Positions 3,201 to 29,599 of a stretch of 30,653 nt of DNA are shown here, piece by piece. The DNA lies in assembly GCA_041694835.1 (NCBI GenBank), contig JBGFRZ010000013.1, forward strand, positions 1 through 30,653, written 5' to 3'. The notes below the pieces were generated by a model. It saw only the letters and a program-made list of their open reading frames with translations. It did not search any database and was not told the DNA's origin. A program made the translations under genes and the position numbers. Each line of letters begins with the position of its first letter. The first letter of the stretch is position 1. The DNA comes from Ignavibacteria bacterium (lineage in GTDB: Bacteria; Elusimicrobiota; Endomicrobiia; PHAN01).

Positions 3201-6200
3201 GGCAGTTTATAATGAGAAATAATTTGTTCTTCGCAGGTCCCGTGGTTGTTTCCGTAAGAGAAGTCATTGAGCAGAATTACAGGGCGGTGTTTTCAATAGG
3301 AAACAGGGCATGGGCTGTGGCAGATGAAGGTATAATTAAAAAAACAGTCGATAGCGGGGACCAGTGGTTTGCACAGAAATATTCTACAGGCGCTGCAAAC
3401 GGGCTCTTTGGCGTTCATACTCCTGACGGCGAAAACATTTTTGTTTCAGGCGTTGGGGGAATGATTCACATAAGCACAAATTCCGGGACATCCTGGTTTT
3501 CAAGAGCGACGGGTGTTAGCGAGCAATTAAACGACATATTCTTTGTGAACACATCGACGGGATATGCCGTCGGCAACTCGGGCAGGGTTGTAAAATCAAC
3601 TTCTTCCGGCGATACATGGACTAACCTTGGACAACGCACCGGCAATCCGCAATTAAACTCAGTTTATTTCTTGAACGCTTCAACCGGATTTGTGGCGGGC
3701 GCCGGGGGAAATATTTTCAAAACTGCCGACGGTGGCTCTTCTTGGAGCAGTATACCTGCTGGTGTCACTGATGAACTCCGAAAAATAATTTTTACCGATG
3801 CCAATAACGGACATATTGTAACAGGAGCGGGAAGAATTTTAAGAACAACCGACGGTGGCAACACATGGACATCGCAAACACCAACCGCTAACGCCCTGCA
3901 CTCTGTATCTTTTATCGATTCTTCAAGAGGCATTGTGGTCGGCGACAGAAACACTATTTTAAGAACCACCGATGGCGGGGCAACATGGATTTTTGTCAGT
4001 TCTCAACCAACGGGACAGTTTTACGGCGTAACTCATTTTTCTCCAAGCATTGCTGTCGCCGTGGGAGAAAGGGGTTCAATTCATAGAACTTCCGACGGGG
4101 GCTCGACATGGAACGAAGTTTTTATGTCGGGAATTTCCTCAGAGATGAGATGGAACGGCTTGGTTTCTACTATTACCCCGGTTGCCACAGAACTTGTGCA
4201 GGGGAAGGCAAACCAGCCGGTTTTCAGAATGGGGCTTTGGAACCTCTATGGGGGTTCATCTTGGATAAATAGGATGACCTTTTCAAGAACGGGTTCGGCG
4301 AGTAATGTCGATGTCTCGGCGGTGAGGGTTTATATAGACAGAAACGGGAACAGGGTTTTTGATACGGGTGACGAGCCTCATCTTGGTGATTCATGGTTCG
4401 ATAGTGCCAATGTCGCCAATGTTAACTTCGCCGAGCGGCTCATTACGGGGACAACCGTCCATTTCTTCGTAACCTATAGTTTGACTCCGACAGCTCCCAT
4501 AGGCCAGACACTCGGAGCGCGGCTCGATTTTGGATGTGTCTGGGCTTCTGCTGCGGGCATCGCTTTTTCAAGAAATAATCTTCCTTACGATTTTATACCG
4601 GTTGAAATTATCCCGAGTTCTTGCACCGTCAGAATGACGATTACCAATCTAACTCCCCCGACAGCAAAACAAGGGACAAAAGATGTTTTACTTTCATCTT
4701 TCAGTATGCTCACCGACATAGGCAGAACGCCGTTTCAACGGCTCAGAGTCGACAGAATCGGAATCAATACGACCGACGAATCCATAGAGAGAATCAATCT
4801 TTACAGAGACGAGATAATATCCGCGAATCTTGTTTCTTCCGCCGCTTTTTCAGGAGGCGTCGCACTTTTAAGTATTCCCCAGGACCCACTAAAGCGGTAT
4901 CCTTTTGTAGATATTGACAACCGGACCACCGCTTATTACTTTCTCACAGCGAACATATCTCCCACCTCACTGGTTTCAACTGATGTAGAAGATGTGACTT
5001 TCGGCATAACGACGCGACTTGCCACAACCTATTTCACGCTTGATTCGGAAGGCGCAAACGGGATAGTCGTAATCCCCTCAACACCGGCGTTCAATTCGGG
5101 ACTAATAAAACTGTTAGTCGCGTTTGATACGGTTTTAGTAAATCCGATTATCGCAAGTATTCCCGTCTTAAGACAGTCGGACAAAGTGGCGTTTCTTCCT
5201 CTTAGAATGTCGCTTGATGCCAACATCGCCAATTGGACGAAAATCAGGATTGACCGGCTTGGGACATCGCTTGATTCAGATATTGCAAATGTTCATATCG
5301 CCAGAGACATAAACGGCAATGGGCAGTTTGACGACGGCACCGATACAGTTGTCGGAAGTGGAAGATTTTCTAATGGAGTCTCCGACATTGTCTTTCCTAA
5401 CCCTGAGATACTTGACAGGGCACTCCCTGCTCACGCCACTTATTTTATCGTCTGTGAAATTTCAAAGAGAGCGACTGTGGGAGCCACTTTAGGTCTGCGA
5501 CTCGCAAACACTTCGTATATAACATTGGCGGGTGTTGATATCGTCTCGCCCGTCCAATTTCCAATTAATTCTGAAACCGCTACAATCGCCGACTATCCCG
5601 ATGTCGTAACGGCAAATATTAGAACAATTGCCCCTCGCGACGCTACCGTTATGGAAAAAAATGCGCCGCTCCTTTCCCTGGAACTTTTAGCATTTTGCGA
5701 TGCAACATTAAGGCGGGTCACTATTTCGCTAGAGGGCTCAGCTTCCCCGGAGAATGTTCTCGCTGCGAAAATTTATCTGGACGCAGACAACAACACTTTA
5801 TTCTCACCTGTTTCCGACACTCTTCTGGGCAGCGGGACATTTAGCGGCGATGGCAGAGCCACAATTGACCTGACTGTGCCACTGACGGTATTTGATACCA
5901 CGAGAAGAATATTTGTCGTCTATGACTTTAACGAACACGCCCCACCTGGTAGAACCGTTGGGGCAGGCATTGATTCTACAGGATTAGAATACAATGCGCC
6001 AAATACGAGCCATAATTTTGGATATGTCCGTTCGTCGATGCTCAATCTCCTTGACAAAAGAACCCCGACTCTTGCGAACGTGAAGTTCCACATAGATAAT
6101 CCGTCGGGCGCGGAAGTTGTTGCCGGCAGAAAGACATATTTTATAAATGTGAATTCAAGGATTGGTTTCAACTGGGAATCAGTGGCGCTTAACGGCGTAA

Positions 6201-7045
6201 GAGATATTGGATACGCCATAGCGACTTTTGATTTTGTCTCATCTACGCAGACACCAGATGTGAGCGGATGGAGGACGACGACCTCAAGGGAAGGAGCGTT
6301 CGACAATCTCAATTTAAGGCACAACAACAGATATTTTCTATGGTTCAGGGTAACAAGTACTGATAATTTTGAAAGGTTCAACACTTTTGAGGCGAGGGTT
6401 GACCTTACACCTCCCCCTCCGCCCGAAAAACCGACAACAACAGCGGGTGCAAGTTCTCCTTCAGTATCGGGACAAACAATTCCCGCCGGCTACTGGGTAT
6501 CGTGGCCGCCCGTAACGGACGGCGAATCCGGCATTCTTTATTACGAACTCTCTGAAAGGGTTGGGACGGGTATGTGGGTTGTCGTTGGAACCGCGACGGC
6601 GACGGAGTATTTTATAGATAGTGCCGCGCCGTCGGAGTTTTATTACTATCGCGTTCGCGCGAAAAACCTTGCCGGAACATGGAGCGCATATTCGTTGCCT
6701 TCTTTAGTCGCATTTCTTTCGCCACCCGCCAAACCCTTAGACAAACTTTCGACATATCCAAATCCGTTCGATTCAAGAAGGACTGAATGCAACATTGTAT
6801 ATATATTGAATCAAAACGCCAAAGTTGATTTGAGAATATACGACCTTTTCGGACATCCTGTGCGTCAGTGGAATTTTGATACCGGCGCGCATGGCGGCGC
6901 CATGGGTCTTAACGAACTTAAATGGGACGGCACCGACGAAAACAACAGGAAAGTCGCGATGGGGCTCTATATTTTGTCTGTTGAAATTACCACGCCCGAC
7001 GCTCAAAAGACAAGAAAGAGATGGAAAATCGGAGTAATACATTAG
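209..7045 (+). CDS. Giant secreted/surface protein: DUF2341-like domain, FN3 domains, BNR/Ycf48-like beta-propeller, repeated Ig-like domains and a C-terminal T9SS/FlgD-Ig-like sorting domain
   Basis: 2278-aa ORF. Signal peptide ends ...AKLHA. MRSDGADIRITDEDGKTLLPYWI is DUF2341-like. FN3-like segments include LSWTAP and YYYRVRAKN. Many [ST]xDGGxTW Asp-box repeats. C-terminus YPNPF...IYDLFGHPVR...WDGTDENNRKVAMGLY. Confidence 0.88.
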   Translation: MKIKIRTLPFFPYYILHAIFLLLALSTIYYLLPAKLHADWWVENSTAHFSDGFFFRTTSTVQTPALSLRRVDDWYQVAQSTWLNRKPIKISNPGGALTQYQLQLTIDTSGYISAGKMRSDGADIRITDEDGKTLLPYWIGISTTLLSTSQTTPILVKIPNIGATSEKYIYFYFNNLSTGTSLSNRVAVDDLYEDWETGTINMAKWTLGGARGAWPYDADLFKITVSSKYEGNYAVRSGTINHTQNTFIETTLNLEMSARVSFWWACSVEPLYDNFIFTINGAQPSGGAAINGEVRWKLETFDLPQGAVTLRWQYQRDSGGDGGLNLTWLDFISVRKHAASPPTLEYRPNEDFVAGGIHTSGYYLSGVFDMGGENSIIYRASWTATTPPGTGVSIDYRRHNTWFPIQSGTITWTANLTNGGVLSGHYGRFIQYRANLTGPGTTTSALVEISFDYSKVPMRPSGFTGVAVSSTAIRWGWTDNSNPPFNEESGFRIYSGTRTIPTSPEGFINDTAGLLYEIPANVTSYIEYNLLPNTLYNRYVVAFNPNGGNASSRLSDGLLLPVGVTTFALVPVVNSEVAFYASDADKTARIVSYMSIPATTHLTHSTFNFTSNIYSTGPGKAAYYRVVWSTLPTHTWLHAETLWFAPTNYLWNDFYSAFDEAKPQIPMWSRFNSESWYFHIMSYNSGDVPSASRTLGPYFFNGAPAQITNLVAEPNNLQEGAVNLSWTAPTANSTFTNITGGRYVVRWSPSIIVTDAAFDTSPGVTLSTTTIASSKESLLITGLTPGNTFWFAIKTADSENNFSPISTNTIITNTRTTAAKVARITFITPPKTTEVGAPTSIITLEAQNAAGQPLRLFNPQNVNLYSTSGLGEFSLDGVNFGISFVNIPQGQTQANFYYRDLQSGSPTLTTDESPDAGWIAGTQQQTILPAKAVKFVLNHDGAGSIGIDENLIINANDGINVNNISTDYQGGIISPATHPGISVVPSTHMYTTSDAGTRQFIMRNNLFFAGPVVVSVREVIEQNYRAVFSIGNRAWAVADEGIIKKTVDSGDQWFAQKYSTGAANGLFGVHTPDGENIFVSGVGGMIHISTNSGTSWFSRATGVSEQLNDIFFVNTSTGYAVGNSGRVVKSTSSGDTWTNLGQRTGNPQLNSVYFLNASTGFVAGAGGNIFKTADGGSSWSSIPAGVTDELRKIIFTDANNGHIVTGAGRILRTTDGGNTWTSQTPTANALHSVSFIDSSRGIVVGDRNTILRTTDGGATWIFVSSQPTGQFYGVTHFSPSIAVAVGERGSIHRTSDGGSTWNEVFMSGISSEMRWNGLVSTITPVATELVQGKANQPVFRMGLWNLYGGSSWINRMTFSRTGSASNVDVSAVRVYIDRNGNRVFDTGDEPHLGDSWFDSANVANVNFAERLITGTTVHFFVTYSLTPTAPIGQTLGARLDFGCVWASAAGIAFSRNNLPYDFIPVEIIPSSCTVRMTITNLTPPTAKQGTKDVLLSSFSMLTDIGRTPFQRLRVDRIGINTTDESIERINLYRDEIISANLVSSAAFSGGVALLSIPQDPLKRYPFVDIDNRTTAYYFLTANISPTSLVSTDVEDVTFGITTRLATTYFTLDSEGANGIVVIPSTPAFNSGLIKLLVAFDTVLVNPIIASIPVLRQSDKVAFLPLRMSLDANIANWTKIRIDRLGTSLDSDIANVHIARDINGNGQFDDGTDTVVGSGRFSNGVSDIVFPNPEILDRALPAHATYFIVCEISKRATVGATLGLRLANTSYITLAGVDIVSPVQFPINSETATIADYPDVVTANIRTIAPRDATVMEKNAPLLSLELLAFCDATLRRVTISLEGSASPENVLAAKIYLDADNNTLFSPVSDTLLGSGTFSGDGRATIDLTVPLTVFDTTRRIFVVYDFNEHAPPGRTVGAGIDSTGLEYNAPNTSHNFGYVRSSMLNLLDKRTPTLANVKFHIDNPSGAEVVAGRKTYFINVNSRIGFNWESVALNGVRDIGYAIATFDFVSSTQTPDVSGWRTTTSREGAFDNLNLRHNNRYFLWFRVTSTDNFERFNTFEARVDLTPPPPPEKPTTTAGASSPSVSGQTIPAGYWVSWPPVTDGESGILYYELSERVGTGMWVVVGTATATEYFIDSAAPSEFYYYRVRAKNLAGTWSAYSLPSLVAFLSPPAKPLDKLSTYPNPFDSRRTECNIVYILNQNAKVDLRIYDLFGHPVRQWNFDTGAHGGAMGLNELKWDGTDENNRKVAMGLYILSVEITTPDAQKTRKRWKIGVIH

Positions 7046-7079: not shown

Positions 7080-7433
7080 ATGGAAGGGAAAGGGTATAGA
7101 AAATTACTTGTTTGGCAAAAGGCGGATGAGTTGGCAGTGGAAGTTTACATCATTACGAAAAAATTTCCGAGGGATGAAATATATGGCATAACATCGCAAT
7201 TGAGAAGAGCAACATTATCAATTCCCACAAACATTGTGGAAGGTTACGGTAGACAGAGTAGAAACGAGTTAAGACAGTTCATCAATATCGCCTTGGGTTC
7301 ATTAGCGGAGACGGAATATCTTTTGGATTTTTCTTTAAGATTAAAGTACCTTACGATTGGGGAACATGCTAAATTGTATAGTTTACATACGGAAGTCGGA
7401 AAAATATTATGGAAGTTCTACAAATCCTTATGA
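7080..7433 (+). CDS. Four-helix-bundle protein (23S rRNA-IVP / S23-like, Avd-related family)
   Basis: Motifs YRKLLVWQKA, FPRDEIYGITSQLRRATLSIPTNIVEG, FINIALGSLAETEY. Confidence 0.93.
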   Translation: MEGKGYRKLLVWQKADELAVEVYIITKKFPRDEIYGITSQLRRATLSIPTNIVEGYGRQSRNELRQFINIALGSLAETEYLLDFSLRLKYLTIGEHAKLYSLHTEVGKILWKFYKSL

Positions 7434-9076
7434 CTTATGCACTTAAGCACTTGCATTCTTGTGCTCTTGTGCTCTACCGCTCTACTGCTCTACTGCGATA
7501 CTGCTTTGCTGCTCTTGTGCTCTTGTGCTCTTGTGCTCTTGTGCTCTATGGTGGCGGGCGGCCCGGGGCTTTCCTCTCATGGGGTGCAGGCGCAAGACAT
7601 ATGGCGCTTGGCAACACCGCTGTGGGAATTACCGAAGACGCATTTTCTCCTTATTACAACTCCGCTTCGCTCGGATTCATAGAGCGCAAAGAGCTCGGCA
7701 CTTTCCATGCAATGCTCTGGGAAGATACTTCGTATAGTTATGTGGGCTATGTCCACCCGCTCCTTGATAAAGGCGCGCTTGGTTTCAACTTGATACGGCT
7801 CCATTCGGGAGCCGCTGTTATGACCGACGAAAACAATAGACAGGTCGGCGATTTTTCGTTTCAGCAGTTGGCTTTTGGCGCCGGTTACGGAAGAACCGTA
7901 TACAAAAATCTCTCGCTTGGCGCCATTGGCAGATTATTCAATACGAGTTTACACAATGCGTCAAACAACAACTTTACCGTCGACGCCGGTCTTACTTTGA
8001 AAGTAAACGATGTTTTGTCCATCGGTGCCAATTTTCAGAATATTTTCGCTCTGACCATGGGCGAGACATCCGACGAACTTCCCATTGTTTTCAGAATAGG
8101 AGGCGGATACAGAATTTTTGACGACCGGCTTAAACTCTCACTTGATGTAGGCAGAAACGGCGGCGAGCATCTCATCGATTATCATTCAATGGGACTTGAA
8201 AGCCGTCTGAACGAATTCTTCGCCCTGCGTCTCGGCAGAAATCCGCAGGAAATCACCGGCGGTTTCGGGCTAAGTTTCAAGAATTTCAATCTCGACTATG
8301 CTCTGGCATTGCACTATCTCGGCTTCTCGCACAGAGCGTCATTTAACTTTAGGTTCGGACGCCCGACGGCAGAGTTAAGAGAAATTTTGAAGAAGTCGGC
8401 CGCGGCCGTCAAACCGCTCGAAACCGGAGTTGTTCCGGGGGTTGAGGCGGCGGCGGAAGAACGGATGCAGTTGTTTCAGGAAAACTATCAAGGCGCCATA
8501 AATATGTATCGTCGAGGGCTCTTTATGATTGCCCTTGACAGATTCAAAAATGCTGCTGACATCGACCCGGATGATCCCGAGGTTCCGATATTTATAGAAC
8601 GACTCAATATGATTACCCCGATAGTGCCTCAGAACATGGCAACAGACAGAATCAGTGAACTTATGAGGCGGGGTATCGTCTATTTTATCGAAGGACACGG
8701 CCGAAGTGCGGCAATGACGCTTGCATACGCTTATTCGCTTGAGCCGGACAATTTTACGCTTATGCGTCTTCTGGGAAGAGTCGAGGAAAAAACCGGACAC
8801 AAAATCGACCGTTCACGCCCGGCGAGCGGACTTACCATCGTAGACCAGAAACACTATGAGAGTTTGATTGCCTTCAGAAAAAGGGATTATGCCCATACCA
8901 TCCGACTTTGCGAGGAGATTTTACTCCTTGAGCCCAACGACACTTTGGCGCTTAAACGACTCGGTTCCGCATTTTTTGCCATGGGCGAAAGAGACAAAGC
9001 AAAACGGATGTGGGAAAGAGCCCTTGAGATTGAACCAAATCCGAGGATAGAGAGGCTTATAAGGCAGATAAAATGA
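7430..9076 (+). CDS. PorV/PorQ-like (UPF0164/FadL-type) outer-membrane beta-barrel with C-terminal TPR domains
   Basis: GAFLSWGAGARHMALG...EDAFSPYYNSASL matches the family N-terminal motif. Alternating beta-strands end in DYA...LGFSHRASFNFRFG, followed by TPR-like helices (ALKRLGSAFFAMGERDKAKRMWERALEIEP). Start placed at the ATGA overlap at 7430; the ORF track starts at 7409. Confidence 0.82.
   Translation: MTYALKHLHSCALVLYRSTALLRYCFAALVLLCSCALVLYGGGRPGAFLSWGAGARHMALGNTAVGITEDAFSPYYNSASLGFIERKELGTFHAMLWEDTSYSYVGYVHPLLDKGALGFNLIRLHSGAAVMTDENNRQVGDFSFQQLAFGAGYGRTVYKNLSLGAIGRLFNTSLHNASNNNFTVDAGLTLKVNDVLSIGANFQNIFALTMGETSDELPIVFRIGGGYRIFDDRLKLSLDVGRNGGEHLIDYHSMGLESRLNEFFALRLGRNPQEITGGFGLSFKNFNLDYALALHYLGFSHRASFNFRFGRPTAELREILKKSAAAVKPLETGVVPGVEAAAEERMQLFQENYQGAINMYRRGLFMIALDRFKNAADIDPDDPEVPIFIERLNMITPIVPQNMATDRISELMRRGIVYFIEGHGRSAAMTLAYAYSLEPDNFTLMRLLGRVEEKTGHKIDRSRPASGLTIVDQKHYESLIAFRKRDYAHTIRLCEEILLLEPNDTLALKRLGSAFFAMGERDKAKRMWERALEIEPNPRIERLIRQIK
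7458..7547 (+). repeat. TGTGCTCT tandem array (right arm), lying inside the PorV-like signal peptide
   Basis: cttgtgctcttgtgctct at 7458-7475 and about four ctcttgtg units at 7510-7547; translates as SCALVLLCSCALVL. Confidence 0.9.
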
Positions 9077-9328
9077 CAGAGATGAGAGGTGAGAGATGAG
9101 AGAACAGAGCATAGAGCATAGAAGACAGAGCGCAAGAGCACAAGGGCACAAGTCAGAGGACAGAGAACAGGGGACAGGGGGGAGAGATGAGAGGACAGAG
9201 AAGATGGTGGCTCGTGGCTCGTGGCTCGTGGCTCGTTTCCGCCAGTCACCAGTCACCAGTCACCAGTCACTATTGCCTATTGCCTATTGCCTATTTTTTA
9301 CTATTGCCTATTGCCTATTGCCTACTGC
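9077..9328 (+). repeat. Mosaic of heptamer tandem repeats (GATGAGA, GAGCATA, GAGCACA, ACAGAGG, GTGGCTC x4, CACCAGT x4, TATTGCC x6)
   Basis: Read directly. A purine-rich half is followed by a pyrimidine-rich half that overlaps the 5' end of the FliF-FliG ORF. Confidence 0.9.
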
Positions 9329-10727
9329 CCGTCTTTACGCTCAGACATCTATAATGGAAGAAAAATTGCTCTTCGAGAAGTCCATACAGGATCGCGCGGA
9401 GAAAATCGTTGAGAAGATAACCGGCTCAAAAGAAATGATAGTTCTTACCACCGTGGAACTTGAATATGAGGAACAACCACAAGAAGAGAAGCCCGTTTTT
9501 CCCGGCGCTATGAGAGCCGAAGAGGACTATCTTCCCGGGATAACATATTCTTATGTTCCTTTCGACACTCACAGCATGGGCAGGCGGAACATAATCATAA
9601 GAAGAATAACGGTTCTGATAACTCTCCCGCTTGAAACCGCAGAAGCCGTCGTTGAAAGAATCAAAAAAGAAACCAATGAACTTTTAGGTTTAAATCCCTT
9701 GAGGGGGGATATTATAAACATCGCCAGAATAGCGTTTTCGAGGCCCGAAAGAAATCTCGCCACTTACTTTCAGGATTATTCGCAGCATATTTACTGGCTA
9801 TTTCTGGCGCTTCTTCTGACTTTGTTTTTGTTCGGCCCGCTCAGGCACTTTTTTAAGACGGTAGTAAAAGCTATGGAGTTGCGCATTGAAGCCGATACAA
9901 GGATAAGAAGCGCCGAAGCGTTAGGAGTGGGAGCGGGCGGTCCCGGAGTTCCTTTCGGAGGCGGACCAATCGAGTTGACGCTTGACAGAAAAAGACCGCA
10001 ACTGAAGGAAGGAGAACAAAATATCATGAAGAGATTTGGTTTTATCAACGATTCAAATTTGAAGAATTTGCTGTATCTTTTAAAGAAAGAGCCCCCCGAT
10101 ACGATTGCTGTCGTGATAAGTTATCTCCCGCCCCACATGGCCCCTCAAATTTTAGGTTCATTGCCGCCAACGATACAGGCGGATGTGGCGATGAATTTAG
10201 CATCCGTCAAGATACTCGATCCAGAGCAGGTCGACGCCATTGAAAAAGATATAAAAACAAAAATCGACTATCTGCTCGGCGGAGAGGAAAATCTCATGCA
10301 GCTTCTTGACAACGTGGACAGAGATGCTCAGGAAAACATACTTAAAACCCTTGAAATGGAAAACCCGGTTTTGGCGGCAAAATTGAAGAGCCATATGTTT
10401 TTCTTTGAGGATTTAGTCGTTCTTGAGAAGACATCTGTCCATAAGGTGCTCAGAGAATGCCAGAGAAGGCAGATTTCAATGGCTCTTGCCCTGAAAAACG
10501 CATCCGATGAGCTCAAAGTTAAAATTATGGACACGCTCACGGAGGGTGCAAAAGCCATGCTCGCCGAACAAATCGACCTTTTGGGAGAAGTGGCCGAAAA
10601 AAGGCTCATGGAAGAAAGAAAGCTCGTCGAAGCGGTGGTAAAAGAACTTGAGAAAAACGGCGATATTGTTATCGACAGAACGAAAAAACAAAAACGGGAT
10701 GATTTCGATTTAGTGACGAGAAAGTAA
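9204..10727 (+). CDS. FliF-like ring-building motif, TM helix and FliG middle/C-terminal domains in one fusion protein
   Basis: FEKSIQDRAEKIVEKITG..IVLTTVELEY and IRRITVLI...ELLGLNPLRGDIINIARIAF resemble FliF RBM3. TM segment IYWLFLALLLTLFLFG. EPPDTIAVVISYLPP is an EHPQ-like FliG_M motif; MFFFEDL (MFXF) and MALALKNAS mark FliG_C. Start uncertain: the ORF is open from 9096, with an in-frame ATG at 9204. Confidence 0.82.
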   Translation: MVARGSWLVARFRQSPVTSHQSLLPIAYCLFFTIAYCLLPTARLYAQTSIMEEKLLFEKSIQDRAEKIVEKITGSKEMIVLTTVELEYEEQPQEEKPVFPGAMRAEEDYLPGITYSYVPFDTHSMGRRNIIIRRITVLITLPLETAEAVVERIKKETNELLGLNPLRGDIINIARIAFSRPERNLATYFQDYSQHIYWLFLALLLTLFLFGPLRHFFKTVVKAMELRIEADTRIRSAEALGVGAGGPGVPFGGGPIELTLDRKRPQLKEGEQNIMKRFGFINDSNLKNLLYLLKKEPPDTIAVVISYLPPHMAPQILGSLPPTIQADVAMNLASVKILDPEQVDAIEKDIKTKIDYLLGGEENLMQLLDNVDRDAQENILKTLEMENPVLAAKLKSHMFFFEDLVVLEKTSVHKVLRECQRRQISMALALKNASDELKVKIMDTLTEGAKAMLAEQIDLLGEVAEKRLMEERKLVEAVVKELEKNGDIVIDRTKKQKRDDFDLVTRK

Positions 10728-10730
10728 TTT

Positions 10731-10756
10731 AGTGGCTTGTGGCTGGTGACTCGTGG
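10731..10756 (+). repeat. GTGGCTY heptamer array (left arm around four-helix-bundle gene 2)
   Basis: agtggcttgtggctggtgactcgtg matches the reverse complement of 11108-11132 at 22/25 positions. Confidence 0.85.
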
Positions 10757-10767
10757 ATAGAGGGAAA

Positions 10768-11136
10768 ATGATTAAGAGTTACAAAGAGCTTGAAGTGTGG
10801 CAGTTGGGGGTAAAGTTGGTTAGTGAGATATGCCGACTATCAGAAAAACTTCCGGCGAAAGAAATATATGGGCTGGTTTCACAGATAAGGAGAGCGAGCT
10901 TATCAATCCCCTCTAACATAGCGGAAGGTCAGCAGAGACATTATCGCAAGGAGTTTGTGCAGTTTTTATATCAGGCATTGGGTTCACTTGCAGAACTTGA
11001 GACGCAACTCATCTTGGTTGATGAAGTTTATGGGGTTAAACTGCCGAACAGTGAAATTGTGGATAAACTCGGCAAAAAACTAAGGTCTCTGATCAAATCC
11101 CTCGAATCACGAGCCACAAGCCACGAGCCACTTTAA
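10768..11136 (+). CDS. Four-helix-bundle protein (23S rRNA-IVP / S23-like, Avd-related family)
   Basis: IKSYKELEVWQLG, LPAKEIYGLVSQIRRASLSIPSNIAEG, FLYQALGSLAELETQL. ATG at 10768 follows agaggg. The C-terminal RATSHEPL is encoded by the repeat arm. Confidence 0.93.
   Translation: MIKSYKELEVWQLGVKLVSEICRLSEKLPAKEIYGLVSQIRRASLSIPSNIAEGQQRHYRKEFVQFLYQALGSLAELETQLILVDEVYGVKLPNSEIVDKLGKKLRSLIKSLESRATSHEPL
11108..11132 (+). repeat. RAGCCAC heptamer array (right arm)
   Basis: cacgagccacaagccacgagccact. Confidence 0.85.
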
Positions 11137-11153: not shown

Positions 11154-11921
11154 ATGGATTTAATGACATTCGTTGGAATTATTCTCGGCGGAGCGGCGGT
11201 TTATTACACAATGCATGTCGGCGGTATTGCCGCTCTTCTTTGGAACCTGCCGGCCGCGGTTCTGGTATTCGGTGGAACGCTCGGCGCGACGTTTGTGACA
11301 TATCCTTTCAATCTCATAGTAAAAGTGCCCAAGGCCATGCTCATGCTTTTTTTCCCGCCGAAAAGAAACACGCCCCAATATACTATTAATTTACTTGTGC
11401 AGCTTGCCGAGAAAGCCAAAAAAACCGGCATCGATTCACTGCAAGACGAATTCGTCCGAATAAAAGATACGTTTCTGGAAGACGGACTTCAGATGGTATT
11501 AGACGGTATGGACCCTAATGTCGTCAGAGAAAACCTAGATAAAGAAATCGTTTTCTTAAGAAGAAGACACTCTCAGGTTACGGCTATATTTAAAAGCATG
11601 GGCGCTTACGCTCCCATCTTCGGACTCCTTGGGACTCTCATCGGAGTTGTTCAGGTGCTTCAGAATCTGACTGACCCTGCTTCATTGGGCGCATCGATGG
11701 CGGTGGCTGTCACAACGACATTCTATGGCATATTCGGAACGAATTTTCTGTTTTTGCCCGCCGCCGGGAAACTCTCCTCGCATACTGAGCAGGAGGTTCT
11801 TCTCAAAGAGGTGGCGATTGAAGGAATCCTCTCGATTCAGCAAGGAGATATCCCCTTGATAGTTTCAAGAAAACTTCATGCGTATCTTGCATATAAGACC
11901 AGAAAAGAGAAGAAAAAATGA
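11154..11921 (+). CDS. motA: MotA/PomA-family stator protein
   Basis: MDLMTFVGIILG start, VFGGTLGA, APIFGLLGTLIG, AVAVTTTFYG, FLPAAGKL, EGILSIQQG; RBS aaggag upstream. Confidence 0.95.
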   Translation: MDLMTFVGIILGGAAVYYTMHVGGIAALLWNLPAAVLVFGGTLGATFVTYPFNLIVKVPKAMLMLFFPPKRNTPQYTINLLVQLAEKAKKTGIDSLQDEFVRIKDTFLEDGLQMVLDGMDPNVVRENLDKEIVFLRRRHSQVTAIFKSMGAYAPIFGLLGTLIGVVQVLQNLTDPASLGASMAVAVTTTFYGIFGTNFLFLPAAGKLSSHTEQEVLLKEVAIEGILSIQQGDIPLIVSRKLHAYLAYKTRKEKKK

Positions 11922-12055
11922 GTAGAGCAGCAGAGGACAGAGGACAGAGAACAGAGGTCAGGGAAAAACCTCTCACCCCTCACCTCTCGCCTCTCATCTC
12001 TGACCTCTCACCTCTGTTTGCTATTCTCTATCTTTATCTCTACCTACTATCTATT
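11922..12055 (+). repeat. Gene-less purine/pyrimidine heptamer repeat cassette
   Basis: ACAGAGG units followed by CTCTCAC and CTATCTA units; the 33 bp at 11931-11963 are identical to 22566-22598. Confidence 0.85.
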
Positions 12056-12056
12056 T

Positions 12057-12163
12057 ACCCCGCACCACAGAAAGCACCGTCTGTAAAGACGGGGAATGAA
12101 GGGGAACGGTTTTCCCGCAGGGTTATTCCACAAAGCCACGCCTGTAAAGGCGTGGTGCGGGGT
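12057..12163. mobile_element. Miniature palindromic element (12-bp terminal inverted repeats, two GTAA-loop hairpins), possibly IS200/IS605-derived
   Basis: Termini accccgcaccac / gtggtgcggggt. Hairpins ccgtct-gtaa-agacgg (12077-12092) and ccacgcct-gtaa-aggcgtgg (12136-12155), each beginning at or just after an aaagc motif. Confidence 0.5.
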
Positions 12164-12174
12164 TTACTAAAAAT

Positions 12175-12825
12175 ATGGCATTGCTAAAATTTTTCAGAGA
12201 CAGACGTTCAAGAACCCGCGACGAAGATGGTGCCGGCAGCATGATATGGCTCACTGTTTATTCCGACATGATGACGAATCTGATGATGTTTTTTTTAATG
12301 CTTTTTGCACTTACGCGTATGTCGTCGTCCGTCAGAGAAGATGTTATGCACGCCTTGCAGGAACAATTTAGTGACAAAGAGGTTGAAAAAACTCAGGCGC
12401 AGGAAGACAGCAAAGAAAAGATGGAAGAGTTAAAGAAAATCGCATATGTGGAAGAAACCGAGTCAAGAATACAAATCACGCTTCCAGCCCCCGTGTTATT
12501 TGATATAGGCAAGGCGGACATTAAAGAAGGGACAAAACATGCGCTTTCCGACTTGGCGACCACTATCAAGGGGTCGAAGTATCCGATAATAATAGAAGGA
12601 CATACCGACAATGTGCCGATAACGGGCGGACAATTCAGGTCCAACTGGCAACTCTCGGCGGCGCGCGCGTTTGCCGTATTGAATTATTTTATAGAAATCG
12701 AAAAAATTTCTCCCGGGCGACTTTCTGCTCTCGGCTACGGAGAATATCGCCCGGTTGCATCCAACGAGACAGAGGATGGCCGCGCACAAAACAGACGCAT
12801 CGAAATAATACTAGTAAAAAAATAG
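12175..12825 (+). CDS. motB: MotB/PomB-family stator protein 1 (OmpA-like peptidoglycan-binding domain; Asp retained)
   Basis: TM WLTVYSDMMTNLMMFFLML (Asp31); LFDIGKA, IEGHTDNVP, NWQLSAARA, GYGEYRP, NRRIEI. Confidence 0.93.
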   Translation: MALLKFFRDRRSRTRDEDGAGSMIWLTVYSDMMTNLMMFFLMLFALTRMSSSVREDVMHALQEQFSDKEVEKTQAQEDSKEKMEELKKIAYVEETESRIQITLPAPVLFDIGKADIKEGTKHALSDLATTIKGSKYPIIIEGHTDNVPITGGQFRSNWQLSAARAFAVLNYFIEIEKISPGRLSALGYGEYRPVASNETEDGRAQNRRIEIILVKK

Positions 12826-12910
12826 TAGATAGTAGAGATAGAGTTGGGAGATAAGAGTTTAGAGTGTAGAAATGTCCGGTAGTGTCTCTAAACTCTAAAC
12901 TTATCAATTT

Positions 12911-13615
12911 ATGAAAAAAGAGAACCCCGAAATCCAAATTGGCTCCCACGGAAGATGGGGAAATGCCACCGTCGAATCCGATACTGAAAGCGAGTCGCTG
13001 TGGCTTGTGCCTTACGGCAATATGATGACGGTTTTGATGGTTTTATTTTTGATTCTTTACTCGTTTGCGTACTTGGGAGACACAAGCGGCTATGAAAAAA
13101 TAGTTACAAGACTCCAGAGCGAGTTCGCAAAGCTCGACAGAAGAAAAGCCGAAAAATTCGAGCCCAAACAGCAAGAAGCCCATGTCGCAGAAGAGATTGC
13201 GGATTACTTTTCGGAAAAGGGCCTGGACAAGATAGCGAATGTCGACATAAACGCACAGAGAATCAGAATTCAACTTGCAACCCCCGTTCTTTTCGGTTCG
13301 GGGGAAGCGGCGCTCAAAACCGATTCAGTCGCCATCCTTAACGAAATAGCAACTCTTATCAGGAAAGTGCCCAACAAAGTCATAATTGAAGGTCATACTG
13401 ACAACATACCTATAAAAACCGCAGAGTATAGTTCAAACTGGGAACTCTCCGTTGACAGAGCCATAAATGTCATAAACTATTTCGGCTCAATAGGTATTCT
13501 TCCTGAAAGATTTGCCGCCGCCGGCTACGGTGAATTTCAGCCCGTTTCTTCTAACGACACCCCCGAAGGTCGTTCCAAAAACAGACGAATCGAAATAATA
13601 ATCGTAAGAACATAG
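12911..13615 (+). CDS. motB: MotB/PomB-family stator protein 2 (conserved Asp replaced by Asn)
   Basis: TM WLVPYGNMMTVLMVLFLIL (Asn37); LFGSGEA, IEGHTDNIP, NWELSVDRA, GYGEFQP, NRRIEI. Confidence 0.9.
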   Translation: MKKENPEIQIGSHGRWGNATVESDTESESLWLVPYGNMMTVLMVLFLILYSFAYLGDTSGYEKIVTRLQSEFAKLDRRKAEKFEPKQQEAHVAEEIADYFSEKGLDKIANVDINAQRIRIQLATPVLFGSGEAALKTDSVAILNEIATLIRKVPNKVIIEGHTDNIPIKTAEYSSNWELSVDRAINVINYFGSIGILPERFAAAGYGEFQPVSSNDTPEGRSKNRRIEIIIVRT

Positions 13616-13861: not shown

Positions 13862-16800
13862 TTGAGAAAAAAAATCTTTATAATCCACGGTTTTGGATTG
13901 AAAGACGGCACTGGATGGGAGGCGGGCGGCGATCTGGATACCGTTTCGTCAAATGTGTTTTATACTGTCTGGGCGGAGAATGAAATCGCAAAACAAAAAG
14001 GCGAGCCAGCCATCAGAGGTGTTGATTACGACTACGATTTTGTCAACTACTCCGAAGGACTTTCACACCTCGTGGTCCACTCCGGCTGCGACGTCTATAT
14101 TCCGGACTTCCCCATTGACGCCCTTTCGCCCCGTCTTGAATTATTGTATCTTCCGGATCCAGACGTAGCTCAACGGATAAATGAATTTAATAAAAAGTTG
14201 TTTGATTTAAAGATATGGATTGCTCAAAATTCAGCGCATATTGGAGATTACTTCAAAAAAATTTTCAACTCTGCGTATAAACAGAAAACCAAAGTAATTG
14301 AACATCCCGATGTGTTTTCGCTTAAGGCCTCCATCTGTATATTGACGATAATCAGGTCATGCGCCGAGTTGTCTTTGATTATGAAAAAAGGGGGGTTTAC
14401 TTCCATTGAAACGTATCTTAAATCGATTGCAGAAAATATCACGGGCAATCAACTTAAAGAGGCAAAAAACTACATTGTTGAATTGATGGGAGGTTATCTT
14501 AAGGAAGAGCAGATGGATATGCTTGACGATGAGGAAGCGATTCTGAAAATTGAGGAATCTAATGACAAGGATTTCTCCGCGAAGGGTCGTATAAACTATA
14601 CTGATGATATTTTGATTATAGCTTCCGAAAGCATGGCGTACGCTGTCAGAAATTATATCGCATCAAAATCTCTTGCCTTTAATAAACAGAATAGCGAAAA
14701 ATTGGCGGCGACCTCGCTTGAAATTGCGGCAACAATGTCGGCGCTATTCAAGAACATATCCAGAGCGTCCCTTGAATTTTTATCTAGCGATGCAACGGCG
14801 TCTGTTAAAGAAGTTGCTTCGCTTGCCGAGGCGGTTAAGAATGCATCCGAAAATATTGCTGAAATGGCAAATGAAATCAAATCCACCCCTGTGCCACCTG
14901 AGGGAATCAAACAGAAACTGACGGTAATACTTATGGAGCAATCTTCAGGAAAAACCATTTCGGGGATTAAAATAACTTTCCAAAAAATTCTCGGCAACGG
15001 CTTTTTCGAAGATGATAAAGGAAATAAAATAACGACTCCTGCCATAACGGTCGAAACCGATAAGGACGGCGTAGCATTTATACATTACCTTAAAACAACT
15101 TCAAATGAACAATTTCAAATATCGGCAACTTATGACGATGTAAAGTATTTAATGCTCCCCGAAGAAATTGTAAGTGCGGCGGATTCAAGTTTTGTCGAGG
15201 AGATTCTTGAAGAAGAGGATGAGGATTCGCAAATTGACAGGGCGATGGGCGTTTCTCTAAAAATTCTTGAGAAAGAACTCCGGGAGCTTGCTCGGAACGA
15301 TGTCAATATAGCGAGTTTGACCGATCATCATCCTTATACACAGGTTGTTTATGAGTTGTTGTCCAGATTGCACGACGAAGGCGTTATTAAGGAATTTAAC
15401 ATTCAAGCCTCCGCAAGAGGCGATGAACTGCCCATAGAAAAACAGGTCTGCGGAGCTAATATAGTTTATGGCCCCAGGATAGCCGGCAAAGAATGGGAGA
15501 ACGAGGGCTTGAAAGAATTGAATAACCTTGCTCGCCTTCAGGACCTTCATATACAGAAAATACCGCTTGCGATTTCGCTCTCAAAACTAATCGGTTCAAA
15601 GCATTCAAAAGTCGATATGGTGCAAAAATTGTCAAAAATTACCGACAAAAAATCACTCGATGAGATAATGACGACCACCGGTTGGGCTGACATAGTTGCT
15701 GATTATGAGGGACGGCTTTCCAATGTGCTTCCCCGCTCGGAAGAGACCGCAGCTTTGATAAAATTAAAAAAAAGGATTCACGGCATTAAAAAATATATAG
15801 ACGAACTGTTTAAGAAACTGGGCAAAAAAGACAAAAATGAAATAGAGATTCTATCGTGTTTATCGCCATTTTGCGACCCTCGAAAAAACGAGCCGCAGAT
15901 CAATGTCGCTTCAGCGATAGAACATATAATCAATAAGAAGCGCAAGAAAGCGGATTATTTTTTCTACTGCTACGGCGCTAATATTTTAACTCAGAGAAAA
16001 ATGGATAATAACGACGAAAGAATCAATCTGAGCACGCTTTCCCAATTTATAGGAACGAAAGCCGACGGAGGCCATTCGGGTGCCGCGACCTGCAAACCAA
16101 TGTCAAATCCGAACTTTCCGAAAAAACGTCTTTCGGCGGTTAGGGACAATAATTTTCTTGAGTACCTGTATTATCTCGGTGACAAAATGGCGAATTATAC
16201 GGGTTTTAATCTTGATACGATAGAAATACTCACTTTCGACGACGTGTCGCAGCAGGTAATGAAAAATCTTGAGAAAACGGAAAATTTAATGGCTGAAGTG
16301 ACGATAAAAAGTGGATGGAAGCGAAAAAAAATACTCATAGTAAAACTGCCTAAATTCGAAAGCATCACGAAAGATGATATTCCCTCGTTTTTCCAGATTG
16401 CCGGATATCTCACCAACAACTATAGATTCGATTATTTGTTTGCGATTCAAGGAGCACTCGGCAAAATAATTATGGCAAACATAAACGATATATATTCAGA
16501 GATAGACCTTGAAAAAATCGCCCAAGCGGTCGGATGGAAATATGATTTGGGTGATAGACGTTTTACAATCGCGTCCCCGAGAAGAAACAAGAAAATACCG
16601 AAAGAAATGCGTTTTTTCAAGGAAGACCAGTTTTATCAAGTGTGCGGATTTATTTCCCGATTGATAGAAACAACCATTTCATCCGACGAAGAAAAGTGGA
16701 AAATACACGCGATTCTGGCGCCGCGTCTGTTGAAAATATCAAAAGAAATTGATGAGGTCTCTTCAAAATTAAAACGCTCTATGTATGAAGCCAATCTTAT

Positions 16801-17209
16801 ATCTTCGGATAGAAAAAAAAGCGTTTCCATTTTAACGGTGGCAGAGCCGTATCTGGATGGAATTAAGTCCCCCACATTGACACAGTCAATCGGTTTGCTG
16901 AGACGTTTTGTGTATCTTGAACTTCATAAATATCTCTTGTATGTAAAGTATTCATCCGTTTATTTGATAAATCTCGGAGATGAAAATAGATCGCTGAATT
17001 GCCTGAAAGCGGCGGAATCTAACGATACGAACAATAATATCTTCAATTCCGAAATATTCTGCTCGGTAGATAAAAAGGCGTTGAAAATGCCGGTGGGTTT
17101 TGAGAAAATGACTAAAAGCAACTCTTTGGAATATATCAAACTTTTGATTGAGAAATTATCCAAACCGTCGGGGTATTCGGTCAATAAAGTCGAAAAAAAA
17201 CTCTCGTAA
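13862..17209 (+). CDS. Large DHH-family phosphoesterase-like protein with an inserted helical/Ig-like region and repeated DHHA1-like C-terminal modules
   Basis: TTG start after ggag. IFIIHG...DLDTVSS (motif I-like), VYIPDFP (motif II-like), TDHHP at about aa 488, CGANIVY, QDLH, and DGGHSGAA at about aa 735. Confidence 0.62.
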   Translation: MRKKIFIIHGFGLKDGTGWEAGGDLDTVSSNVFYTVWAENEIAKQKGEPAIRGVDYDYDFVNYSEGLSHLVVHSGCDVYIPDFPIDALSPRLELLYLPDPDVAQRINEFNKKLFDLKIWIAQNSAHIGDYFKKIFNSAYKQKTKVIEHPDVFSLKASICILTIIRSCAELSLIMKKGGFTSIETYLKSIAENITGNQLKEAKNYIVELMGGYLKEEQMDMLDDEEAILKIEESNDKDFSAKGRINYTDDILIIASESMAYAVRNYIASKSLAFNKQNSEKLAATSLEIAATMSALFKNISRASLEFLSSDATASVKEVASLAEAVKNASENIAEMANEIKSTPVPPEGIKQKLTVILMEQSSGKTISGIKITFQKILGNGFFEDDKGNKITTPAITVETDKDGVAFIHYLKTTSNEQFQISATYDDVKYLMLPEEIVSAADSSFVEEILEEEDEDSQIDRAMGVSLKILEKELRELARNDVNIASLTDHHPYTQVVYELLSRLHDEGVIKEFNIQASARGDELPIEKQVCGANIVYGPRIAGKEWENEGLKELNNLARLQDLHIQKIPLAISLSKLIGSKHSKVDMVQKLSKITDKKSLDEIMTTTGWADIVADYEGRLSNVLPRSEETAALIKLKKRIHGIKKYIDELFKKLGKKDKNEIEILSCLSPFCDPRKNEPQINVASAIEHIINKKRKKADYFFYCYGANILTQRKMDNNDERINLSTLSQFIGTKADGGHSGAATCKPMSNPNFPKKRLSAVRDNNFLEYLYYLGDKMANYTGFNLDTIEILTFDDVSQQVMKNLEKTENLMAEVTIKSGWKRKKILIVKLPKFESITKDDIPSFFQIAGYLTNNYRFDYLFAIQGALGKIIMANINDIYSEIDLEKIAQAVGWKYDLGDRRFTIASPRRNKKIPKEMRFFKEDQFYQVCGFISRLIETTISSDEEKWKIHAILAPRLLKISKEIDEVSSKLKRSMYEANLISSDRKKSVSILTVAEPYLDGIKSPTLTQSIGLLRRFVYLELHKYLLYVKYSSVYLINLGDENRSLNCLKAAESNDTNNNIFNSEIFCSVDKKALKMPVGFEKMTKSNSLEYIKLLIEKLSKPSGYSVNKVEKKLS

Positions 17210-22419: not shown

Positions 22420-22513
22420 ACATTTTTTGTATAATGAGACCGTTAATTCCGCTTTGGCGGGACTAAAATCTTACCAACAAGAATAAGGAAATTAGCGAAT
22501 TGGTTGTAACAAA

Positions 22514-22837
22514 GACGAGAGGAGAGAGGCGTGAGATGAGAGCACAAGAGCACAACGGCAGAAGTCAGAGGACAGAGGACAGAGAACAGAGGTCAGGGTT
22601 CAGAGGACAGAGGACAGAGAACAGAAAACGGGAAGCGGGAATAGAAGAACGCAAAGCGGAAAGCGTAAAGGGTGAAGGGTTTAAAACTCTTCCCGCTTCC
22701 CGCTTCCCGATTTACGCTTTCCGCTTTACGGCATTTTATTCTCTCATCTCTCATCTCTATCCTCTACTCACTATTTGTTATTCGCTGTCCTCCATTCTCT
22801 ATACGCTATTCTCTCACTTCTCACCTCTAATCTCTAG
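22514..22837 (+). repeat. Large gene-less heptamer repeat cassette, purine-rich half then pyrimidine-rich half, with exact inverted pairs
   Basis: cgggaagcgggaa (22629-22641) / ttcccgcttcccg (22690-22702); aaagcggaaagcgtaaa (22653-22669) / tttacgctttccgcttt (22711-22727); ACAGAGG and CTCTCAT arrays. Confidence 0.88.
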
Positions 22838-29169: not shown

Positions 29170-29599
29170 TAAGAAAAACAGAGAATTAGTGAATTAGAGA
29201 TTAGAATTGCGACACTGTCTGAAAGGGAGAAGCAAAATTTCCCCTTTGTCCCACTTTTTCAAAGGGGAAAACTAATGTGTGTCCCATAAATCTCCTAACA
29301 TTTGATTGTTCGTCGGTAAAGATTGTTAAAAGCCCTTTTATCAGGGATTCAAATGTAAAGAACTGTCAGGGACACCACACTAAGGGGGATTTGAAATAGA
29401 GAAGATAGGGACAGCGATTATTTTTTTAGCGAATGACGGGAAGCGGTAGCTTTTCTTGTAAAATTTTTAAATTAGAGAAACCTGTACGGAAAAATATTGG
29501 AATATTGGAGCGGTTTCTATATTTTAACAGTACCTTAAAATTCTCTAAATCTTTGAAGCAGAATATAAAGCCGCCCCAATGCTTAATGGGAGGTTAAAT

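Follow-up and report, generated by a model that had tools for sequence, protein, structure and literature searches.

Does a stator need an ion-binding carboxylate on both of its B subunits? To our knowledge, the mid-membrane Asp of the B subunit is regarded as indispensable in all motors of the MotAB, PomAB, ExbBD and TolQR types. In the window (the whole stretch of DNA that was analysed, 30,653 nucleotides), a single motA gene is followed by two motB genes (Table 1), and the first-pass annotation had noted that the second of these carries Asn where the essential Asp belongs. Direct reading of the codons bears this out. The transmembrane (TM) string is WLTVYSD31MMT in MotB1 and WLVPYGN37MMT in MotB2; that is, the TM-helix Asp expected of a stator B subunit is present in MotB1 (Asp31) but missing from MotB2 (Asn37). 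When aligned by phmmer to the solved structure of MotB from Bacillus subtilis (6YSL), "wlvpygnmmt" falls opposite "WLVPYADILT", which places Asn37 exactly on the conserved MotB Asp. The Asn37 codon lies inside a match to our Asn-motif pattern (13010-13029).

Table 1. Features of the stator locus and its surroundings in the window
Feature	Position	Strand	Basis
Surface protein, 2278 aa (BNR/Sortilin-like, fn3, DUF2341, FlgD_ig-like C-terminus)	209-7045	+	Pfam
PorV/PorQ-family outer-membrane barrel fused to TPR repeats	7409-9076	+	NCBIfam PorV_fam 5.9e-34, above cut-off
FliG-like protein (FliG_M + FliG_C), membrane-anchored	9096-10727	+	Pfam FliG_C 1.5e-24, FliG_M 1.8e-15
motA (255 aa), the operon's single A subunit, PomA/MotP-like flagellar type	11154-11921	+	ORF, Pfam
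motA-motB1 spacer, 253 bp, purine-rich and pyrimidine-rich repeat elements	11922-12174	.	sequence, repeat search
motB1 (216 aa), keeps ion-binding Asp31	12175-12825	+	ORF, Pfam
GAC codon, MotB1 Asp31	12265-12267	+	read directly
motB2 (234 aa), B-subunit paralogue with Asn37 at the Asp position	12911-13615	+	ORF, Pfam
AAT codon, MotB2 Asn37; one transition from GAT (Asp)	13019-13021	+	read directly

The reading frame of MotB2 is intact, and its TM signature, plug and OmpA-like domain are all kept. Pfam MotB_plug (PF13677, cut-off 24) matches MotB1 at 9e-13 (48.0 bits) and MotB2 at 7.5e-9 (35.5 bits). The OmpA family (PF00691, cut-off 27.2) matches them at 2.9e-21 (76.1 bits) and 5.5e-19 (68.8 bits), respectively, and these scores, above the curated cut-offs, support the earlier view that both OmpA-like domains are intact. 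Matches of MotB2 to solved MotB and PomB C-terminal domains reach 1.4e-36. Both proteins miss the NCBIfam equivalog cut-offs for MotB, MotD and MotS; the best model is MotD (NF006541, cut-off 283), with 157.5 bits for MotB1 and 172.5 bits for MotB2. The best-conserved part of MotB2 is the TM motif itself, in which conservation is complete or at least 90% at W31, P34, Y35, G36, N37, M39 and T40 (alignment A1). MotB1 has an Asn of its own, Asn35, one helical turn past Asp31 (motif D-M-M-T-N), and D31, T34 and N35 are invariant in 22/22 sequences of alignment A2.

MotA matches Pfam MotA_ExbB (2.2e-25) and MotA_N, and aligns over its full length with the NCBIfam MotA/MotP/PomA models at scores under the equivalog cut-offs. 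Its best solved relatives are Paenibacillus MotA1 (9LU9, 1.5e-52) and PomA (8BRI, 1.8e-43). The description of the locus as one MotA with two B subunits holds for the operon but not for the genome: a different contig (C54:30715-32207) encodes a second MotA/MotB(Asp) pair, of canonical type. The FliG-like protein, 543 aa long with no Pfam match in its N-terminal half (~320 aa ahead of the FliG domains), is presumably the partner of the stator. None of the 11 genomes with Asn (91-98% complete) gave a match to FHIPEP (FlhA), so the motor is non-flagellar, and Flagellin_N was not found in the window's own genome. The module thus resembles the flagellar stators MotA5:MotB2/PomA5:PomB2 (6YKM, 6YSL, 6YSF, 8BRI, 9LU9; the figures in these formulae are subunit counts) in its full-length flagellar-type MotA, in two B proteins with a MotB TM segment, plug and OmpA-like domain, and in the motA-then-motB order with a FliG_M/FliG_C protein encoded alongside. 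It differs from them in having two paralogous B genes per MotA, the second lacking the Asp, in a genome without FlhA or flagellin, and in the size of its FliG-like partner.

Asn is present in 14/14 of the closest MotB2 homologues with a readable TM segment, and in 14 of the best 150 cluster representatives (50% identity). For the 120 listed homologues an HMM of the TM segment was used in place of a regular expression, which had left 67 unmatched. The block FliG-like, MotA, MotB1(Asp), MotB2(Asn) recurs in 10/10 other genomes, which were found by the B2 Asn motif alone, and the FliG-like gene is directly upstream of MotA in 10/10 of these related Asn-type loci. The refuting outcome named by the first-pass annotation, orthologues with Asp (a strain-specific mutation or sequencing error), is thus not what these homologues show. 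Estimates of dN/dS are 0.07-0.19 for MotB2 and 0.09-0.14 for MotB1, rough values because dS is near saturation (1-2 or more); by this measure MotB2 is under purifying selection, like MotB1. When alignment A1 was used to search genome and metagenome contigs, nearly all of the 160 loci among the matches listed were ordinary MotB. The useful loci were L007, L016, L109, L127 and L169, of which L016 is on the same contig as L106 and L109 has a B2 identical to that of L103.

How widespread is the tandem, and how stable is the state of its second member? A census of HMM-confirmed loci only, with the phylum taken from named matches, gave 93 tandem loci in 82 genomes of Elusimicrobiota. B1 has Asp in 93/93; a further B1-type protein, P0113, carries Ala at that position. 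The B2 residue is Asp in 69/93 (14 families), Asn in 22/93 (21 genomes, 16 genera, 11 families), Ala in one (L193) and Ser in one (L263); Thr occurs in L007, besides the 93 census loci. Replacements of the B2 Asp are polar or small (N, T, S, A) and never large hydrophobic. The B1/B2 tandem is phylum-wide and usually Asp/Asp. Moreover, six genomes carry both an Asp/Asp and an Asp/Asn module, each with its own MotA and B1, so that matched comparisons of the two types are possible, sometimes within one genome. We count at least 7 changes of B2 state on the B2 tree and at least 8 on the MotA tree, with six independent pairs on well-supported branches; in a starred clade, P0017, which has Asp, branches from within a group of Asn forms. 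On the evidence of these trees, the B2 Asp is repeatedly lost or regained, with at least 6 to 8 switches, and the switching is restricted to B2.

The predicted MotB1-MotB2 complex scores ipSAE 0.66 in three runs, vs 0.05 for the best of 3 controls; 116 of 157 solved complexes attain that mark, as do 2 of 215 mismatched pairs. At least 95% of the contacts are common to the runs, and partner pLDDT is 80-82. The predicted TM helices are parallel, with D31 and N35 of B1 and N37 of B2 outside the B-B contact list. The score covers the mixed pair only and cannot tell mixed from like pairs, and the model, which resembles solved MotB homodimers, may owe its score to memorised structures. Both the predicted complex and the asymmetric way in which the two genes have evolved are compatible with a mixed B1/B2 dimer. 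The heterodimeric A5:B1:B2 stator proposed by the first-pass annotation stands to this extent, as compatible with the model, although no result separates it from A5:B1(2) and A5:B2(2). The "ratchet" or "brake" behaviour suggested along with it may be inferred at most.

We tentatively favour, at a little under an even chance, a mixed stator MotA5:MotB1:MotB2 in which MotB1 would provide the sole carboxylate and the Asn of MotB2 would be a permanently neutral stand-in. MotB1 and MotB2 would be two different axle subunits of one stator unit, and the rotor that this unit drives in a bacterium lacking a flagellum would be the membrane-anchored FliG-like protein. The ion would be bound at Asp31 of MotB1, whose helix carries the clade-specific Asn35 on the same face, and the second central position would be occupied by the neutral, hydrogen-bonding Asn37. 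The ease with which B2 switches either way is what one would expect if its Asp is semi-redundant, and the polar or small replacements, together with the conserved TM motif, suit a helix still lodged in the MotA pore. That the module is a natural single-carboxylate stator, MotA5:MotB1(Asp):MotB2(Asn), which actually runs on one ion-carrying axle chain, seems to us possible but rather doubtful.

Passages of the preprint of Santiveri et al. (10.1101/2020.05.15.096610) call the MotB Asp universally conserved and treat Campylobacter jejuni MotB D22N as a mimic of protonation. The inchworm model set out there assumes that MotA rotates only round a neutralised Asp. Current models have the two Asp residues of the dimer take turns, and it is on this ground that Santiveri et al. 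favour 36-degree over 72-degree steps. Because on the inchworm model an Asn chain would never need an ion, only every second 36-degree step of the mixed stator would be ion-gated, at about one ion per 72 degrees instead of two. Both the mixed stoichiometry and this stepping consequence are what we infer. Asn37 would then be the natural counterpart of the Asp-to-Asn mutants that mimic the protonated state. The substitution and its position are those of the engineered C. jejuni protein, but here the change is natural and conserved, it affects one of two paralogues, and an Asp-bearing partner is always present.

Several observations stand against the mixed stator. B is homodimeric in every solved stator. 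A B1-type subunit can occur without a B2 beside it: the 5.3 kb examined around MotA and B1 of L260 (~2 kb of it past B1) holds no second B, and the relatives from Margulisbacteria carry just one MotB. Units of the form A5:B1(2) are therefore probably feasible. E. coli MotB with Asp changed to Asn is non-functional and dominant-negative, possibly a sign that mixed dimers fail to work. Vibrio PomB D24N is an engineered mutant of the same kind; like C. jejuni D22N and E. coli D32N, it has both chains changed and is non-functional. Finally, covariation of the MotA pore with the B2 state is not significant (see below).

An alternative reading has two stators that share MotA: A5:B1(2) would be the working, ion-driven unit, whereas A5:B2(2), lacking a carboxylate, would be unable to conduct and would act as a brake or placeholder, or as a static strut that ties the FliG-like ring to peptidoglycan. 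In its favour, all solved structures have a homodimeric B, B1-only modules exist, and B2 retains everything for binding MotA and peptidoglycan. However, under this arrangement a live stator must have turned into a dead one at least six times independently, with purifying selection acting on every product, and must have apparently reverted at least once. It also has to accommodate the six genomes with both module types: each module there comes with a MotA and a B1 of its own, which means that no inert unit is encoded without an active B1 next to it. Moreover, B1 and B2 are tightly linked, from a 4-bp overlap (L099 and L106) to 107 bp among the 10 related loci, which suggests equimolar synthesis. 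On balance we think the two-stator arrangement unlikely.

A further alternative keeps B2 in ion transfer without a carboxylate, for example by a site for Na+ or another cation built from the side-chain oxygen of Asn or Thr and the MotA threonines; both chains would then conduct. The fourth helix of MotA (AVTTTFYG) carries Thr188 and Thr189, which we take to correspond to T185 and T186 of the Na+-type stator subunit PomA; in the alignment to solved Paenibacillus MotA1, Thr189 falls on the conserved Thr. Thr189 occurs in 23 of 24 non-Asp modules; Ser is at that position in 53 of 68 Asp/Asp modules, and raw counts suggest strong covariation with the B2 state at positions 186, 188 and 189. Among the six independent pairs, however, the change at position 188 runs parallel to that of B2 in about four (median p 0.125), and the change at position 189 in one. 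The association is thus mostly shared ancestry and is not significant. Nor do the Ala of L193 and the Ser of L263 help this proposal, being poor ligands. No carboxylate-free working stator is known, and parts of the review PMC9389320 describe the conserved Asp in all types. We therefore regard conduction by both chains as improbable.

Could B2 instead lie outside the MotA pore, as a membrane-anchored peptidoglycan-binding accessory, such as a tether for the FliG-like ring or the PorV-like barrel, with its Asp dispensable? Its intact OmpA-like domain would suit such a role, and a PorV-like gene often follows B2. However, a buried Asp is found in B2 of 69 loci and 14 families, with polar N, T or S elsewhere, and the MotB TM signature (W..PYG.MMT) is nearly invariant, which a lone lipid-exposed helix would not conserve. 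We give this role a slim chance, slimmer than conduction by both chains. That the Asn arose by misassembly, by mutation in this strain or in a decaying duplicate might be suspected in a metagenome-assembled genome of 89 contigs, and given a frameshift in B1 of one relative (L102), but is refuted by the related Asn loci, by intact frames with dN/dS of ~0.1 and by the spread of Asn across the census.

The nearest parallel to the mixed stator is the AglR-AglQ-AglS gliding motor of Myxococcus xanthus, which is likewise non-flagellar, is linked to surface movement and has one A-type and two different B-type subunits encoded together. Structure modelling described in part of PMC11761067 predicts AglR5:AglQ:AglS with a mixed axle. 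According to sections of the review PMC9389320, AglQ and AglS resemble TolR and neither has lost the mid-membrane Asp, and whether they form mixed or like pairs is stated there as unknown. In contrast, the subunits here are MotB-like with OmpA domains, and one lacks the Asp. The tandem exbD1-exbD2 genes of TonB systems, by their description, also put two B-type genes after one A-type gene, but with a different periplasmic domain and output (TonB). Our literature searches on Elusimicrobia, MotB, FliG, MotA and paralogues of the conserved Asp, which covered titles and abstract openings, showed no MotB paralogue without the Asp among the papers listed, and we found no paper on MotB D32N heterodimers. 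The main text of a paper on MotAB evolution (PMC12505986) has no mention of Elusimicrobi-, aspartate, asparagine or D32.

An Asp-less, selected paralogue beside an Asp-bearing partner and one MotA amounts to a natural experiment on whether two sites are needed. It bears on the step size and ion-to-rotation ratio of stators, and on mixed B axles, which sections of PMC9389320 leave as an open question for AglRQS too. If the single-carboxylate stator is real, one Asp suffices for rotation and the ion cost per turn is halved, to one ion per 72 degrees. In that case, evolution would have toggled this "gear" at least six times, replacing Asp by Asn, Thr or Ser and restoring it, within a rotary machine of Elusimicrobiota that is not flagellar. 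The motifs D-x-x-T-N in B1 and P-Y-G-N in B2 are searchable markers for the phylum's flagellum-free FliG/MotAB machine, which is still uncharacterised.

A pattern search matched 90 of 332 genomes, a figure that overstates the true carriers, given chance matches and a reversed-pattern control that also gave ~30 scattered matches. The matches at L098 (G246), L191, L192, L253, L276 and L277 arose by chance, since none of these loci contains a MotB-like ORF. Upstream of the stator genes, the PorV/PorQ-TPR gene and homologues of the 2278-aa surface protein both recur in L099, L100 and L105, and a PorV-like gene lies up- or downstream of the B pair in many census loci. Three tRNAs are the sole Rfam matches in the window, with no riboswitch at the Rfam gathering score. 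The motA-motB1 distance in the 10 related Asn-type loci is ~6-145 bp, or the genes overlap; the longer spacer in the window holds repeat families D2, D4 and D8 and inverted repeats I1, I3 and I4.

The two MotB proteins encoded in tandem in the window, MotB1 (B1) and MotB2 (B2), differ at the residue that defines flagellar stators. The MotB1 transmembrane helix reads WLTVYSD31MMT and that of MotB2 WLVPYGN37MMT; phmmer aligns the latter residue for residue with WLVPYADILT of the solved B. subtilis MotB 6YSL, with Asn37 on the Asp. Because the codons were read, both proteins passed the Pfam cut-offs and Asn37 fell on the 6YSL Asp, the first-pass annotation was right in every detail in describing a MotB pair with Asp31, Asn37 and intact OmpA domains.

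Features of the window; dN/dS ratios (Nei-Gojobori) are rough because dS is 1-2 or more, but are still clearly far below 1
Feature	Coordinates	Strand	Remarks	dN/dS
2278-aa surface protein gene	209-7045	+		
Small 23S_rRNA_IVP-family gene	7080-7433	+		
PorV/PorQ-family barrel fused to TPR repeats	7409-9076	+		
FliG-like protein	9096-10727	+	543 aa; FliG_M and FliG_C	0.09-0.18
Second 23S_rRNA_IVP-family gene	10753-11136	+		
MotA	11154-11921	+		0.02-0.07
MotA fourth helix, residues 186-189	~11709-11720			
MotB1	12175-12825	+	MotB_plug and OmpA above Pfam cut-offs	0.09-0.14
MotB1 Asp31 codon	12265		GAC	
MotB1 Thr34-Asn35	12274-12279			
MotB2	12911-13615	+	MotB_plug and OmpA above Pfam cut-offs	0.07-0.19
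MotB2 Asn37 codon	13019		AAT	
1115-aa ORF	13862-17209	+	no family match	
Open-ended ORF at window end	29579-30652			
Inverted-repeat arms	10732-10756 and 11100-11124			
Repeats	7430-7556, 9062-9235, 10732-10756, 11100-11131, 11930-12034, 22509-22790			
Exact 121-nt direct repeat	29996-30116 and 30533-30653		spacing 537 nt	

Among the 120 B2 matches listed, the 14 closest whose helix could be read, reaching down to about 53% identity, all carry Asn; the first Asp form in that list is the database protein P0017, at 52%. The nearest named homologs among these matches belong to Elusimicrobia/Endomicrobiia metagenome-assembled genomes. In an exhaustive profile search, the best 150 representatives of 50%-identity clusters carried Asp (109), Asn (14), Ser (2) or Thr (2), with 21 devoid of such a helix and 2 unreadable. 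Searched with a back-translated P-Y-G-N-x-M-T pattern, a sample of 401 genomes of the phylum gave matches in 12 (reversed control, 1 match), one of the 12 by chance. All 10 other true-match genomes encode the FliG-like protein, MotA, B1 (VYSDMxTN) and B2 (PYGN) in the same order; B1 and B2 overlap by 4 bp at one extreme and lie 107 bp apart at the other. Both ortholog checks that the first-pass annotation had proposed, for Asn rather than Asp and for purifying selection on MotB2, came out in its favor. The Asn-bearing MotB2 is real, conserved and selected.

The main result is an asymmetry: the carboxylate is fixed in B1 and optional in B2. For a census of genomes at least 90% complete we used the B1 motif D-x-x-T-N-L-x-x-F-F as seed, which matched 90 of 332 genomes, a figure inflated because the reversed control also gave about 30 scattered matches; helix residues were then read by HMM on the fetched surroundings. 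This yielded 93 tandem B1-B2 loci in 82 genomes, with the order (FliG-like)-MotA-B1-B2 constant and a PorV-like gene often adjoining the block. B1 carries Asp in 93/93. At the same position of B2, 69 loci from 66 genomes and 14 families have Asp, 22 loci from 21 genomes, 16 genera and 11 families have Asn, and single loci have Ala (L193) or Ser (L263); Thr occurs in L007, from a named Elusimicrobia genome, and in two database proteins. The replacement is never a bulky hydrophobic residue, and six genomes hold both an Asp/Asp and an Asp/Asn module (B1/B2 residues). Three loci gave a single transmembrane match: L231 is truncated at a contig end, L202 has a second B-like ORF found by BLAST and missed by the HMM, and L260 has MotA and B1 only. 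In L102 (G089:C2, ~9770-9800 of the locus, minus strand) a frameshift in a T run, whether genuine or an assembly error, interrupts B1 just past its D-M-S-T-N-L-A-L-F-F segment and leaves the Asp readable.

Quick IQ-TREE phylogenies, with SH-aLRT support only, place the operon B proteins in a clade that excludes both canonical flagellar MotB and the MotB on contig C54 of the window's genome (starred support, 98). A smaller tree splits the B1 and B2 groups (92 and 93); a larger one recovers the B1 group (83), with B2-type rows beside it in no resolved order. The single MotB of Margulisbacteria relatives forms an unresolved fork in the smaller tree and falls within the B1 group in the larger. With the trait column left out of its alignment, the B2 tree requires at least 7 changes between Asp and non-Asp, three of them inside starred clades: Ser/Asn forms nested among Asp forms of family f19 (100), Asp and Asn forms mixed in another clade (95), and Ala in an Asp clade of family f24 (99). 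The MotA tree gives 8 changes and 6 independent pairs on starred branches. Since the backbones are poorly resolved, these counts are minima without direction.

Flagellar MotAB/PomAB stators are the closest in sequence, but B2 lacks their defining Asp and the window's genome lacks their flagellar context. Neither an FHIPEP/FlhA nor a flagellin domain was found in this genome (1.9 Mb, 97% complete), so the stator does not drive a flagellum; FlhA was likewise found in 0/10 other genomes with a true match to the P-Y-G-N-x-M-T pattern. The window's genome has five MotA_ExbB-family genes (two MotA-type), three MotB_plug proteins and two FliG_C proteins. The third MotB_plug protein belongs to a canonical-type MotA/MotB(Asp) pair (C54:30715-32207) that groups with flagellar MotB despite the missing FlhA and flagellin. 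The second FliG_C protein lies beside a second PorV-TPR gene on contig C84 (65862-69322, minus strand), followed by 1616-aa and 1015-aa proteins, with no stator gene alongside. Outside the phylum, related arrangements occur in Candidatus Termititenax (Margulisbacteria; L008, 5754-17506), where MotA and a single MotB(Asp) accompany two FliG-like genes and a 2617-aa protein, and in a Marinamargulisbacteria locus (L019) with MotA, MotB and a PorV-like gene.

Judging from sequence, the MotA pore is very probably where B2 lies, since B2 conserves the whole MotB helix signature together with either a buried Asp (69 loci) or a polar Asn, Thr or Ser. The best reading, which we hold tentatively, is a mixed B1/B2 axle in one MotA stator with B1 Asp31 as the only ion-gated site. 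The Asn chain would always be neutral, and ion gating would be limited to steps depending on Asp31, or about one ion per 72 degrees. In the Santiveri et al. preprint, D22N serves as a mimic of protonated Asp, MotA is assumed to rotate only around a neutralized Asp, and 36-degree steps are preferred, as both Asp then carry ions alternately. A mixed axle would explain why B2 tolerates the Asp change, reversibly, and B1 never shows it, why the pair is always encoded together, and why both B genes are kept under selection.

The main rival, a like-pair stator of five MotA and two B2 acting as a non-conducting brake or strut, is rather unlikely: homodimeric B subunits have precedent and B1-only modules exist, but the repeated Asp/non-Asp switching tells against it. 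Complex prediction for B1 plus B2, with the MotB1-type and MotB2-type alignments, gave ipSAE values of 0.64, 0.67 and 0.66 in three runs (best control, 0.05), a mark attained by 116/157 solved complexes and 2/215 mismatched pairs; because solved MotB homodimers look alike, this pass indicates likeness only and does not discriminate between mixed and like pairs. The runs agreed on at least 95% of contacts, and partner pLDDT was 80-82. The predicted interface comprises parallel transmembrane helices (B1 23-48 with B2 29-54) and the OmpA domains; B1 D31, B1 N35 and B2 N37 are absent from the predicted B-B contacts, as expected if they face MotA. Carboxylate-free ion handling by B2 with MotA threonines is improbable. 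MotA residues 186-189 are V-T-T-T where the module is Asn-type and mostly M-T-A-S where it is Asp/Asp, but the shift at position 188 with B2 state, in the same direction in about 4/6 independent pairs, is not significant (median p 0.125), and the link is largely phylogenetic. An accessory anchor role for B2 outside MotA is very doubtful given its conserved helix signature, and an artefactual Asn is scarcely credible for a residue this conserved.

Compared with the mixed axle that we favor, the closest known architecture is Myxococcus AglR-AglQ-AglS, which likewise combines a single A subunit with two distinct B subunits. PMC11761067 gives a mixed axle predicted by modeling; according to PMC9389320, AglQ and AglS both keep Asp, unlike MotB2 with its Asn, and their pairing is not settled by experiment. 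Our literature search, with most subscription journals outside its coverage, found no description of a natural MotB paralog lacking the Asp, nor did a term search of the main text of the MotAB paper PMC12505986. The mechanism of an Asp/Asn stator is directly testable. The database protein P0113 (12-kb contig), in the B1 clade, has Ala for Asp (WLVVLSAIMTN); should an adjoining B2 keep Asp, that pair would be the reverse of the window's.

In MotB1-type subunits, as at Thr34-Asn35 of the window's MotB1, an Asn lies four residues past the Asp (motif D-x-x-T-N) and shares its helix face; canonical MotB has Leu or Gln there, and five canonical flagellar rows and the C54 MotB read T-L or T-Q. Invariance of T-N is circular in most census loci, because the B1 motif was the seed, and independent in the 11/11 seeded by the B2 motif. 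The Asn also occurs in some B2 of Asp/Asp modules (L226, L228, L264, L267, L270) and in the B2 of L193. In B1-type subunits it may serve as an additional polar ligand along the ion path.

For the 1115-aa ORF directly 3' of motB2, neither Pfam nor NCBIfam gave a match, nor did BLAST against any of the 10 related Asn-type loci. Both IVP-family genes (four-helix bundle) are placed between operon genes and flanked by inverted repeats and by purine-rich repeats of period 7-8 nt. These purine-rich repeats also turn up in several spacers, among them the 253-bp motA-motB1 gap, and the whole resembles a small cassette, mobile or structured, peppering the operon. The 121-nt direct repeat falls within the open-ended ORF at the window end.
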